From: Candidatus Niyogibacteria bacterium
Lineage (GTDB): Bacteria; Patescibacteriota; Minisyncoccia; JACROR01
Direction of reading: 5' to 3'
Length of the DNA: 64,000 bases
Assembly: GCA_016214345.1 (NCBI GenBank)
Contig: JACROR010000009.1
Span: 241 to 64,240, forward strand
Numbering within the stretch: position 1 is the first letter of the stretch; every line of letters starts with the position of its first letter. Below the pieces are notes generated by a model. It saw only the letters and a list, made by a program, of their open reading frames with translations. It was not told where the DNA came from and searched no databases. Of the stretch, positions 3,049 through 18,631 are shown piece after piece. The translations under genes were made by a program, and so were the position numbers.

Positions 3049-3587
3049 TTTAAAATTATTTTTGGAATCATCTCTAATTCCAACTGAGTATGCGTTCCAC
3101 CGCACATAATAACACAAACTCCTTTATATTCCTTTCGCCTGGTTGGCCTGCCAATGGTGCGCGGATCAGGAATAGTTTTATAAAAATTACTTATAGGAAT
3201 AGAAGTAACACGCGACCAATACCTTTGTAAAGAATTAATATTCTGATCTGCCCTATAACTTACCCTGCATTTCAAACTCTTAGAATTTATACCATAACAT
3301 TCGCGTAATAAATTTATATATAAACAAACAAGGTTTGGATCGGAGCTTCCAAGCATTAAACCATGATGAGATTTCCATTTCGCGCCTTCACCGAAATAAA
3401 GAACGGCTAAAAGCATTTTTAAAACATCTTTGTCTTGTAATTTTTGGCTCAAATTATCATTATTCACCAACAAATTATTCAACAATCTTTCTCTTTTGAT
3501 TTTATTGGATGCCCACGCTCTCTTTTGCGCTTTGCTGAAATTCTTTGCGTTCAACTGCTCAATTTTCTTTTGATAATGCGCTGGCAA
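3039..3587 (-). CDS. putative LAGLIDADG-type homing endonuclease-like protein
   Basis: Motif LLAVLYFGEGAKW resembles LAGLIDGDGS; basic N-terminal extension; stop lies 10 nt inside tRNA-Ala 5' end. Confidence 0.35.
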   Translation of the reverse strand: MPAHYQKKIEQLNAKNFSKAQKRAWASNKIKRERLLNNLLVNNDNLSQKLQDKDVLKMLLAVLYFGEGAKWKSHHGLMLGSSDPNLVCLYINLLRECYGINSKSLKCRVSYRADQNINSLQRYWSRVTSIPISNFYKTIPDPRTIGRPTRRKEYKGVCVIMCGGTHTQLELEMIPKIILKGL

Positions 3588-8983: not shown

Positions 8984-9066
8984 GCCCAGGTGGTGGAATT
9001 GGTATACACAGCAGCTTGAGGGGCTGTGCCCGTAAGGGCGTGCGGGTTCAAATCCCGCCCTGGGCA
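8984..9066 (+). tRNA. tRNA-Leu(GAG)
   Basis: Acceptor gcccagg/cctgggc, anticodon stem gcagc/gctgt, loop ttGAGgg, long variable arm, T-arm gcgggTTCAAATcccgc. Confidence 0.85.
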
Positions 9067-9261
9067 AAACGAGAGCAGCGAGTTTTGGACAGGGAGCAGG
9101 CAAACTGCTTTGCCTGCGTCGGGATTTGAAGGGTTGAGCTATACGCATTTATGCGCGGCGAAACCCCGGCCCAAAGGGAAATCCCGCCCTGGGCAAAACG
9201 AGAGCAGCGAGTTTTGGACAGGGAGCAGGCAAACTGCTTTGCCTGCGTCGGGATTTGAAGG
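9052..9261 (+). repeat. tandem direct repeat (2 x ~81 nt, period 129 nt) comprising the last ~15 nt of tRNA-Leu plus 66 nt of 3' flank
   Basis: 9052-9132 and 9181-9261 nearly identical (atcccgccctgggcaaaacgagagcagcgagttttggacagggagcaggcaaactgctttgcctgcgtcgggatttgaagg). Confidence 0.85.
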
Positions 9262-17760: not shown

Positions 17761-18033
17761 GTGGACGAGGAACTCAAAAAATTATTACAAAGAAACCTGG
17801 AAGTTTCGGAAGAAAGCCTGAAAATATTGAAAAAAATTAGCCGCGCCAGAATCATGGCCGCGGTTTACAATACTTTAAAATTGGCTATCATAATACTGCT
17901 CTCCGTTGGAGCGTATTATTACGTAGAACCCATGATCAATAACCTAATGGGCACCTTAAACCAATTGACCGGAGGCGCGCAATCCGCGCAACAGATCCAA
18001 GATTTGCTAAAACAATATAAATTGCCGAGGTAG
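17761..18033 (+). CDS. small hypothetical membrane protein (GTG start)
   Basis: One TM helix; stop inside 11-nt copy of tRNA-Phe 5' end. Confidence 0.4.
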   Translation: MDEELKKLLQRNLEVSEESLKILKKISRARIMAAVYNTLKLAIIILLSVGAYYYVEPMINNLMGTLNQLTGGAQSAQQIQDLLKQYKLPR

Positions 18034-18034
18034 C

Positions 18035-18166
18035 CCCTCACCCAGAATGGCATTATGCCGCGTGTTTTAACTGGATATTGCTTAACACAATTAAGTGCAC
18101 TAATATTTTAATAGTATTTATTTCTAGAGTGGCGACATAAAAACACAATGCCATTCTGGGTGAGGG
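18035..18166. mobile_element. MITE-like insertion (~132 bp) with 20-bp perfect TIRs and 11-bp TSD gccgaggtagc
   Basis: Left TIR 18035-18054 is the reverse complement of right TIR 18147-18166; direct repeats 18024-18034 and 18167-18177 (= first 11 nt of tRNA-Phe). Confidence 0.6.
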
Positions 18167-18238
18167 GCCGAGGTAGCTCAGTGGTAGAGCACAGGTTTGA
18201 AAAACCTGGTGTCGGGAGTTCGATCCTCCCCCTCGGCA
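18167..18238 (+). tRNA. tRNA-Phe(GAA)
   Basis: Acceptor gccgagg/cctcggc, anticodon stem caggt/acctg, loop ttGAAaa, T-arm gggagTTCGATCctccc. Confidence 0.9.
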
Positions 18239-18318
18239 CAACGAACTTGCCTGCCGATAGGCAGGCGCAGTGAGTTGCGGCGAGGGAGCAAATAAGCAAA
18301 CAGTTTTACAAAAATATT

Positions 18319-18390
18319 CTCCCCATAACTCAATGGATAGAGCGTCAGCCCTCTAAGCTGAACATGTGGGCTTCGCCCCCCACTTTATGC
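18319..18390 (+). pseudogene. degenerate tRNA-Arg(TCT)-like element (C33, 8-nt T-loop); acceptor complement located 100 nt downstream
   Basis: D-arm and anticodon arm (tcagc-ccTCTaa-gctga) resemble neighbouring tRNA-Arg; 5' acceptor ctcccca has no local partner but pairs with tggggag at 18490-18496. Confidence 0.3.
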
Positions 18391-18462
18391 GTCCCCGTAG
18401 TTCAATGGATAGAACGAGAGCCTTCTAAGCTCTAGATCGAGGTTCGATTCCTCGCGGGGGCA
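18391..18462 (+). tRNA. tRNA-Arg(TCT)
   Basis: Acceptor gtccccg/cgggggc (U2.G71), anticodon stem agagc/gctct, loop ctTCTaa, T-arm cgaggTTCGATTcctcg. Confidence 0.85.
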
Positions 18463-18503
18463 TATAAAGTGGGGGGTGAGAATTCCTACTGGGGAGATTA
18501 GAG

Positions 18504-18540
18504 GGGCGCGCAGCTCAGTGGTAGAGCGACTCGTTTATTC
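18504..18540 (+). pseudogene. 5' half-copy of tRNA-Val(TAC) (acceptor, D-arm, anticodon stem 5' side)
   Basis: gggcgcgcagctcagtggtagagcgactcgtttat matches 18557-18592 of full gene at 31/35 nt. Confidence 0.6.
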
Positions 18541-18556
18541 ACCCCGTTAGATATTT

Positions 18557-18631
18557 GGGCGTTTAGCTCAGTGGTAGAGCGACTCGTTTACACCGAGTAG
18601 GTCCGGGGTTCGATCCCTCGAACGCCCACCA
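18557..18631 (+). tRNA. tRNA-Val(TAC) with encoded CCA
   Basis: Acceptor gggcgtt/aacgccc, anticodon stem actcg/cgagt, loop ttTACac, T-arm cggggTTCGATCccctcg, CCA encoded. Confidence 0.9.

Follow-up and report, generated by a model that had tools for sequence, protein, structure and literature searches.

Directly upstream of the tRNA-Phe gene in a 64,000-nucleotide stretch of the Candidatus Niyogibacteria contig JACROR010000009.1 (the whole stretch is called the window in the following) lies an inverted repeat whose outer edges touch a short direct repeat. This arrangement raises the question whether the locus holds a mobile element, and of which type, or a hairpin that belongs to the tRNA gene. 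The original prediction, made from the window sequence, was an insertion resembling a miniature inverted-repeat transposable element (MITE) with 20-bp terminal inverted repeats (TIRs) and an 11-bp target duplication. The reading that we prefer, with a probability of roughly 0.7, is that of a non-autonomous, hairpin-forming MITE-like mobile element, which belongs to a dispersed family of the Patescibacteria and was inserted via a staggered break at the overlap of a 90-aa open reading frame (ORF90) and tRNA-Phe, whereby 9 bp were duplicated.

The predicted inverted repeat is exact: CCCTCACCCAGAATGGCATT occupies positions 18035-18054 and its perfect reverse complement positions 18147-18166. These are the only 2 matches of the 20-mer in the 64 kb at up to 3 mismatches, and 100 shuffles gave 0. 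A repeat finder extended the arms to 18033-18057 and 18144-18168 (25 nt, 96%, 24/25), of which 20-22 bp are perfect. The 11-bp direct repeat GCCGAGGTAGC is exact as well, and its right copy corresponds to nucleotides 1-11 of tRNA-Phe(GAA), which was detected by ARAGORN and Rfam. The TAG stop codon of ORF90 lies within the left copy and the core between the arms is AT-rich, both as predicted. The unit is small and non-coding. Its sole internal ORF comprises 33 aa and has neither a record nor a homologue, and likewise nothing is on record for a 43-aa frame. In Rfam no genuine family, intron or ribozyme was detected over the element; only spurious sub-threshold matches of the microRNA type were obtained. 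The sequence of the locus is identical over 689 nt in an independent Logan assembly (run SRR12113407).

As a check, an empty site in relatives had been proposed, and such sites were found in L003, L010, L007 and the outgroup L025. Orthologues of ORF90 with 96, 92 and 81% identity are present on the contigs L003/L004, L010 and L007-L009. In L003, L010 and L007 the sequence reads ...aaattGCCGAGGTAGCtcagtgg without the insert, and the contigs of the relatives share ...AAATTGCCGAGGTAGCTCAGTGG..., in which the end of the ORF with its TAG falls within nucleotides 1-10 of tRNA-Phe and nothing lies between the two genes. Alignment of the three relatives with the window leaves a single clean gap of 143 nt. 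Their flanking genes are only 82-85% identical to those of the window at the nucleotide level, which makes them different species-level lineages. The distant outgroup L025 (ORF 48% identical) shows the same overlap (...CTCCTGCCGCGGTAGCTCAGTGG, tRNA-Phe at 1746-1818) and no insert. The overlaps are located at 3262-3273 in both L003 and L007, at 982-993 in L010 and at 1744-1755 in L025, with the ORF stop at tRNA-Phe nucleotides 8-10. Since the outgroup also keeps the ORF stop inside tRNA-Phe, the empty, overlapping state is ancestral, and the window, as judged from the alignment, holds a clean 143-bp insertion. The conserved overlap of mRNA and tRNA is in itself unusual; an RNase P cut at +1 would strip the stop codon from the ORF mRNA.

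For identification of further copies, the exact 20-mer was scanned against 185,579 representative genomes (one per species), metagenome contigs and viral contigs. Among the genomes, one contig of Candidatus Vogelbacteria (JAZDGA010000021.1) contains three sites with the exact 20-mer; three other hits were single arms that match by chance. A mismatch-tolerant search of this contig revealed five paired copies. The metagenome scan added L021, L017 and L022 together with three chance matches. We rejected L011, L013, L014, L018, L019 and L020 as members of the family, since they are single arms in coding sequence which have no partner. The exact 20-mer occurs in inverted pairs in JAZDGA010000021.1, L021, L017 and L022, and the true matches are all units of about 130 bp with the same ends. 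Other copies, which the original prediction had suggested to look for, are therefore present in a metagenome-assembled genome of Candidatus Vogelbacteria and in metagenome contigs, mostly in 23S rRNA and RNase P RNA genes. At least five copies of this stem family (family 1) and one copy of a second stem family (family 2) are found on the Vogelbacteria contig, three and one in L021, and one copy is located within the 64-kb window of the source genome. In the viral contigs, neither the family-2 stem nor the new tRNA-Arg described below gave a match when used as query, and the scans with the exact 20-mer revealed no transposase-bounded copy.

The 23S rRNA gene is the host in L016/L012 and L021/L017. 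Comparison of two 23S genes showed units at at least six sites. From their conserved flanking motifs, set against the E. coli sequence, we take these sites to include helix 25, helix 45, a helix-63-like position and helix 98. Pairs of filled and empty sites exist at helices 25, 45 and 98. In L015 the host is a class A RNase P RNA (41.7 bits, E = 1e-11; gathering score 100), where P3 is formed by a 62-nt version, directly 5' of GGAGGAAAGTCC, and P16/P17 are replaced by a complete unit. At the P16/17 copy an apparent direct repeat was discarded, since the GGCC of P15, which is self-complementary, accounts for it. L022 contains a shortened and slightly decayed version about 130 nt upstream of a tRNA-Ile. 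Site A of L016 is 79% identical to the helix-63 copy of L021, which occupies a different 23S site, and the helix-25 copy of L021 is homologous to the helix-63 copy of L016, again at another site. Such homologous subfamilies at differing 23S sites suggest mobility between sites. Both orientations relative to host transcription were observed, with family 1 and family 2 opposed in the same Vogelbacteria 23S gene, and a bias in orientation was therefore not adopted. No consensus target motif was recognized by eye across the insertion sites.

The limits of the unit were determined from the arms of nine copies, which were aligned in the sense of the host RNA and counted for pairs per column. All full copies have arms of 21-24 nt and a spacing of 83-91 nt. 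In stem columns 3-23, 100% of the cells are paired, whereas 6-8 of the nine copies lack pairing in the two columns outside. Compensatory double changes occur at four stem positions (C-G to U-A twice, A-U to C-G and U-A to C-G), and the covariation score is higher than that of all 500 shuffles and of every slid control. One-sided changes within columns 3-23 are all G·U pairs in the sense strand. In the nine copies the unit starts at the C preceding CCCTCAC and finishes at the matching G, one base outside the repeat of the original prediction. In the window, inverted and direct repeat overlap by 1-2 nt, and parses of 132+11, 134+9 and 136+7 bp all fit. As the unit ends are defined by the nine copies, the best parse is a unit of 134 bp with a stem of 21-23 bp and the 9-bp duplication CCGAGGTAG (Table 1). 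The predicted 132+11 bp fit the window sequence, and like 136+7 they stay formally possible because the closing pairs overlap the direct repeat. The window unit thus has the inverted terminal repeats of a MITE, and its discrete ends are common to at least 10 copies elsewhere. The cores of the different subfamilies are not alignable. Target duplication with matching empty sites, a further feature of a MITE, was found at the window copy only.

Table 1. Features of the ORF90/tRNA-Phe locus and of the putative mobile unit (window coordinates)
Feature	Position	Strand	Remark
Putative palindromic mobile unit, 134 bp	18034..18167	-	absent from L003, L010, L007 and L025; ends according to the stem alignment of nine copies; originally predicted as 18035-18166
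Terminal stem, left arm	18034..18057		perfect up to 18054; single mismatch at 18055
Terminal stem, right arm	18144..18167		final base G18167 doubles as tRNA-Phe nt 1
AT-rich core, ~32% G+C	18058..18143		weakly structured; common to other family members only in the sub-terminal motifs GTGTTTTT / AAAACAC
Target duplication CCGAGGTAG, left copy (9-bp parse)	18025..18033	+	holds the ORF90 TAG (18031-18033); 11-bp parse 18024-18034
Target duplication, right copy	18168..18176	+	equals tRNA-Phe nt 2-10; 11-bp parse 18167-18177
tRNA-Phe(GAA), intact	18167..18239	+	100% identical to the L007 orthologue
Conserved 90-aa ORF (ORF90)	17761..18033	+	last four codons overlap tRNA-Phe nt 1-10 in relatives; stop preserved by the duplication

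The window region folds far better than shuffled sequences (z = -6.6 as RNA, -7.5 as DNA). All 10 copies located in 23S or RNase P RNA fold better in sense than in antisense orientation by 3.6-16.7 kcal/mol, the sense fold is richer in G·U pairs in 9 of the 10, and their cores form well-defined multi-branch folds (z about -10). This bias of the sense strand together with the G·U pairs shows that RNA-level selection acts on the copies within RNA genes. The window copy (+3.4) and L022 (+3.2) have no sense-strand bias. Furthermore, the minus strand of the window unit aligns with the sense strand of the L021/L016-family-2 subgroup: the first 31 nt, which include GTGTTTTT, differ at one position, and the other end reads ...AAAACAC...ATGCC. 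This match to the host-RNA sense strand of the homologues places the window copy antisense to tRNA-Phe. The main home of the family seems to be the peripheral helices of structural RNAs, and the window copy can be seen as an off-target, antisense unit with a core that has no selected fold.

The following course of events can be proposed. A staggered break where ORF90 and tRNA-Phe overlap would have let a copy into the chromosome, and repair of the break would have duplicated the 9-bp target (formally, any length of 7-11 bp would fit). The duplication covers the ORF/tRNA overlap in full, and in this way both genes would have been rebuilt, ORF90 with its stop codon and the tRNA with a complete 5' end, and it is for this reason that the insertion could survive. 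Any insertion at this site can only survive if both genes are rebuilt. Mobilization would occur in trans by a transposase that recognizes the conserved 21-bp ends, and a DDE transposase with a 9-bp staggered cut would be the simplest fit. In a read-through transcript, the perfect stem of 21-23 bp would form double-stranded RNA that abuts tRNA nucleotide +1. Length and perfection of this stem fit a substrate of RNase III. The enzyme may cut the stem as it does in 23S intervening sequences (IVSs) and Correia elements, which would free the tRNA from the mRNA and from the decoy 5' tRNA fragment with its upstream GCCGAGG. RNase P would then generate the mature tRNA 5' end. In the minimum free energy fold of 18020-18245, the upstream GCCGAGG pairs with the 3' acceptor strand of the tRNA and displaces the true 5' strand. 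In the relatives, an RNase P cut at tRNA +1 would sever the ORF mRNA 7 nt before the stop, and as far as the sequence tells, the insertion would remove this conflict. We regard the family as an undescribed one of the candidate phyla radiation (CPR), and its window copy is probably made harmless in transcripts by RNase III.

Several observations weigh against a MITE-like element in the strict sense. The search for an autonomous element or a transposase with these ends was negative in the window, in 24 kb of the Vogelbacteria contig, in L021 and among the matches in the genome, metagenome and viral sets, the latter covering exact 20-mers only; the autonomous partner that the original prediction suggested to look for did not appear among them. 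At none of the other copies is a target duplication visible, and the duplication of 9-11 bp goes back to a single event. Just one family copy is present within the 64 kb, and its core is only weakly similar to the other family cores. The RNase III signature motif was not found in the window and the retrieved loci, a result which is uninformative for the whole genome. In addition, the core of the L021 helix-25 copy is nearly that of the copies at helix 45 and site A, but its outer stem (CCCCGACACCAACTTTGGCAT) differs from theirs and is partly homologous to native helix 25 of the Vogelbacteria 23S gene. Such an exchange of the outer stem has the appearance of recombination or conversion among the copies. 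We dropped the claim that the insertion is recent, since the relatives are just 82-85% identical and both copies of the duplication are under selection, one as ORF end and the other as tRNA end; for the latter reason the perfection of the duplication says nothing of its age. What the sequences document for the predicted transposon footprint is thus an insertion with discrete, family-shared ends and a flanking target duplication, together with empty sites and further copies, and from these we infer a transposase-driven mobility.

The explanation that survives best next to a MITE-like element, although it is clearly the less probable one, is an arrival that needs no transposase. A hairpin from rRNA or RNase P RNA, either as a DNA fragment or as cDNA of the excised RNA, would have been captured at a staggered break, or it was introduced by short-patch recombination or gene conversion, and the family would spread mainly by helix swapping between RNA genes. 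This is in agreement with the other copies, which simply replace helix tips and have no target duplication, with the L021 helix-25 copy and its partly native outer stem, with the lack of a transposase and with the RNA-level selection, which shows that the units are transcribed. However, the two ends of the window insert coincide exactly with the unit ends defined by the family, no rRNA flank is attached, and its stem is complete, whereas products of RNase III would lack the outer stem. The 20-bp end is 100% conserved across genera and host genes, which points to sequence-specific recognition, and an exact direct duplication is what a staggered cut by a transposase classically leaves behind.

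It appears very unlikely that the unit is a doublet of two inverted repetitive extragenic palindromic (REP) sequences, known as REPIN, which is moved by a REP-associated tyrosine transposase (RAYT) or a Y1 transposase of the IS200-IS605 type. Two inverted sequences of about 21 bp spaced by about 90 nt, the hairpin and the lack of coding capacity would suit such a doublet, as would the missing duplications at most copies, which are usual for Y1 transposases. Y1 transposition yields no exact duplication of 9-11 bp, though, and here the duplication is validated by empty sites. Moreover, the left flanks share no conserved target tetranucleotide, the copies lie within RNA genes and not in extragenic space, and no RAYT gene or RAYT-like context was seen in the loci examined. 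Even less can be said for direct repeats that represent the attL and attR sites of a site-specific recombinase at tRNA-Phe, with the insert as remnant of a larger element, or that result from an assembly artefact. Integration into tRNA genes is common and the tRNA genes nearby carry scars of replacement, but the insert corresponds to a whole unit of the family, with the standard length, and not to a deletion remnant. Integrases that target tRNA genes usually duplicate the 3' part of the tRNA. Here, the duplicated part comprises nucleotides 1-11 at the 5' end, and an artefact is contradicted by two assemblies which agree base for base. The idea of a native, locus-specific hairpin without any insertion, i.e., a processing signal in the tRNA leader, a terminator or a promoter module, is hardly tenable. 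In its favour are the position of the stem next to tRNA nucleotide +1 and a core segment that weakly resembles a promoter (18082-18109, 9/12). However, the stem is missing in every relative, where the first nucleotide of tRNA-Phe lies within the ORF, it is found again in unrelated genes in other genera, and no T-run follows it. For the latter reason and with only a 9/12 match, promoter or terminator was also rejected as primary role of the hairpin. The original prediction had named a processing hairpin as its own alternative, which is refuted by the empty sites and the dispersed copies. Against each of these four readings (REPIN, att-site remnant, native hairpin, assembly artefact) stands a feature that was tested.

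A MITE-like element of this kind resembles several known systems. For short unclassified insertions of less than 200 bp in CPR 23S genes, it has already been suspected that they are intervening sequences processed by RNase III (Tsurumaki et al., 2024; PMC11270868). IVSs in helices 25 or 45 of the 23S rRNA of Salmonella, Leptospira, Campylobacter and Coxiella as well as the short CPR insertions share with the present family the extended stem-loop of about 100-200 nt without ORF at helix tips, the sporadic distribution, the presumed horizontal spread and the expected excision by RNase III without re-ligation. With such an excision the perfect stem of 21-23 bp would be compatible. The window copy lies at a tRNA 5' end and not in rRNA, where IVSs are located, but the copies of L021, L016 and L012 do have this location. 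In contrast to IVSs, a single family here fills at least six 23S sites in addition to P3 and P16/17 of RNase P RNA, and it also occurs outside of RNA genes, i.e., at the 5' end of tRNA-Phe and upstream of tRNA-Ile, with duplication and empty sites at the window site. These distinguishing features are not described for IVSs in the literature searched.

The Correia elements of Neisseria (Correia repeat enclosed elements, CREE) duplicate the dinucleotide TA. They lie between or beside protein genes in hundreds of copies per genome, in contrast to the element described here with its duplication of 9-11 bp, its preference for structural RNAs and its occurrence in another phylum. Similar to it, they are non-coding units of about 100-155 bp with inverted repeats of about 26 bp, form hairpins cleaved by RNase III when transcribed and can contain a promoter-like sequence; binding and cleavage by RNase III take place at the inverted repeats (PMC2649163; PMC10969869). 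The ends of the family, CCCCTCACCCAGAATGGCATT, are also of interest with respect to MITEs derived from DDE insertion sequences (ISs) with duplications of 8-9 bp, like IS1, IS4/Tn5 and IS256. Such MITEs are likewise small and ORF-less, possess TIRs, duplicate about 9 bp, occur in several copies and form subfamilies with conserved ends and variable cores. CCCCTCACCCAGAATGGCATT is not known to match an IS end, and in contrast to these MITEs no parent IS was identified and the other copies have no duplications but are under RNA-level selection. Rickettsia palindromic elements (RPEs) are palindromic selfish elements of about 100-150 bp that are tolerated in functional genes, RNA genes included. In size, palindromy and tolerance within functional genes they resemble the present family, but RPEs are mostly found in frame in protein genes without a clear combination of TIR and duplication, and there is no sequence relationship. 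They are counted among the MITE-like repeats in a 2024 review of prokaryotic MITEs, which mentions neither rRNA nor tRNA (PMC10969869).

For CPR RNase P RNAs, 'large extensions of helices' were described, e.g., an extended P15, together with sub-threshold scores (Lui et al., 2021; PMC8172020). The RNase P RNA of L015 fits this description with its score below the gathering threshold. There, the extensions were treated as divergent structure, whereas here P3 and P16/17 are copies of the repeat family found in 23S rRNA and at tRNA-Phe. The literature search revealed no paper linking CPR to MITEs. Three aspects seem to be new, namely one repeat family that is common to 23S rRNA, RNase P RNA and tRNA-flanking DNA across genera, a constant unit size with a fold that is selected in the sense strand, and an off-target copy with duplication and matching empty sites.

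CPR rRNA genes are rich in insertions, the spread of which is explained only for the class of introns and homing endonucleases, and insertions of less than 200 bp are listed as uncharacterised (PMC11270868). The window locus provides a family copy outside of rRNA with exact ends, duplication and empty sites. These footprints are lacking at the rRNA copies, which cannot show them because selection on rRNA erases such traces. It leads to the testable claim that short IVS-like insertions are copies of a MITE-like family which also builds helices of RNase P RNA. In practice, repeats of this type break or chimerise assemblies of rRNA operons (e.g., L017) and push RNase P RNA below detection thresholds. 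At the window locus, the target duplication separates two overlapping genes, of which the ORF formerly had its stop inside the tRNA. As a more far-reaching and rather doubtful possibility, the family could represent an unrecognised class of mobile elements that is specialised on CPR structural-RNA genes and inserts as a ready-made helix of constant size, about 130 nt, with an RNA fold under selection in the sense strand, whereby it would become or replace peripheral helices of 23S rRNA and RNase P RNA. The tRNA cluster of the window would then be a record of the same lifestyle at tRNA genes, including a 107-bp tRNA-Arg cassette, flanked by inverted repeats, that split the resident tRNA-Arg and took over its function. 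If true, such mobile elements would bring along or restore the very RNA gene into which they insert.

Further observations were made on the family itself. The second stem family, CCCC(C/G)ACACCAACTTT(A/G)GCAT..., has the same unit size and was seen at L016 7812-7947 and L021 7442-7575. In L021 its core and those of the family-1 copies from this genome are nearly identical, which indicates that cores have been recombined with outer stems. The outer 8-9 bp of this family resemble native 23S helix 25. L017, a contig of 1,033 nt spanning 23S model positions 127-1666, combines a family-1 left arm with a family-2 right arm at 460-600. This mixed unit is most likely an assembly collapse between near-identical cores, so that such repeats chimerise rRNA assemblies. 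Group I introns (RF00028, 57-59 bits) are present in the same 23S genes as the hairpin units (L012 97-589, L021 5497-5863), and a further imperfect hairpin with 40-nt arms is located at L012 1576-1697.

Just inside the stem (18055-18075 and 18130-18146 in the window, at the same positions in other copies), two short complementary pairs occur in crossing order, stem-X-Y ... X'-Y'-stem, e.g., ATGCCGC, GTGTTTT ... GGCGACAT, AAAAACAC, where X covaries between the subfamilies. These pairs may form a pseudoknot or alternative stems, or they may serve as asymmetric binding sites near the termini. Each arm also contains an outward-facing ATG (ATGCCATTCTGGGTGAGGGG, translated as MPFWVRG), in the window at 18148-18168 (+) and 18033-18053 (-). 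The element can thus start ORFs that run into either flank, and examples of 41 and 44 aa are found in the list of ORFs.

The whole tRNA cluster of the window differs from that of the relatives. Their intact tRNA-Arg(TCT) is a split pseudogene in the window (18320-~18372 and ~18480-18500) with C33, a change in the D-stem and a broken T-arm. Its T-loop is interrupted by a 107-bp insert (18373-18479), in which an imperfect inverted repeat of 25 nt (TCGCCCCCCACTTTATGC... / ...GCATATAAAGTGGGGGGTGA) tightly flanks a different, complete tRNA-Arg(TCT) at 18391-18462. From its sequence, this insert looks like a mobile tRNA cassette that has replaced the gene it hit. The C-rich ends of the cassette (CCCCCCAC...) faintly resemble the family-2 stem. 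The following tRNA-Val(TAC) (18557-18631) is a strongly divergent allele compared to the relatives. It is preceded by a 5'-half fragment (18507-18540), which is broken after anticodon position 35, and by a 19-nt filler, TTCACCCCGTTAGATATTT; the Logan contigs break here. L007, L008 and L009, which derive from different samples, all end at GGACGGTTAGCT|TCTGCCCGAGGCAGACCCGCCTTGG, i.e., tRNA-Val nucleotides 1-12 followed by foreign hairpin-forming sequence. These ends may reflect another insertion in the 5' part of a tRNA or an assembly-breaking repeat.

Events of a similar kind were seen at the ORF/tRNA-Phe junction of other contigs. L026, from a distant relative (1761-2180; also L027), contains an old tRNA-Phe 5' fragment, GCCGCGATAGCTCA, an imperfect hairpin of 53 nt, which breaks the old gene, and a D-arm fragment. 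Behind this truncated tRNA-Phe lie a GIY-YIG gene (PF01541) and a second tRNA-Phe, which is complete and of different sequence, so that tRNA-Phe appears to have been replaced beside a nuclease gene. The window contains no GIY-YIG homologue. The tRNA-Phe allele that L028 (1073-1146) and L029 (~927-975) have in common follows the ORF at one and the same site ('aatataaat' junction), but its orientation in L028 is opposite to that in L029. The gene thus seems to have been inverted in place, perhaps by way of the inverted repeat of the acceptor stem. Taken together, insertion and replacement seem to have affected tRNA genes of these genomes repeatedly.

Inverted repeats and duplications were also observed at other tRNA genes of the window. 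On the minus strand (41018-41164), an inverted repeat of 25 nt with 84% identity (CAATGTTTTGCGGGGATCCCGTTTA / TAAACGGGATCCTGGCGAAATATTG) brackets tRNA-Gly(TCC) and may be a leader-trailer processing stem or another cassette. A unit of about 83 nt that starts with the last 17 nt of tRNA-Leu(GAG) is duplicated in tandem within 9047-9261 (9050-9132 and 9179-9261), and the tRNA 3' end recurs in inverted form at the close of each copy (TTTGCCTGCGTCGGGATTTGAA). The arrangement resembles a scar of the att type or a long 3' hairpin. Finally, the pair of tRNA-Pro(CGG) and tRNA-Ala(CGC) is flanked by an inverted repeat of 17 nt with 94% identity (42697-42713 and 42985-43001).

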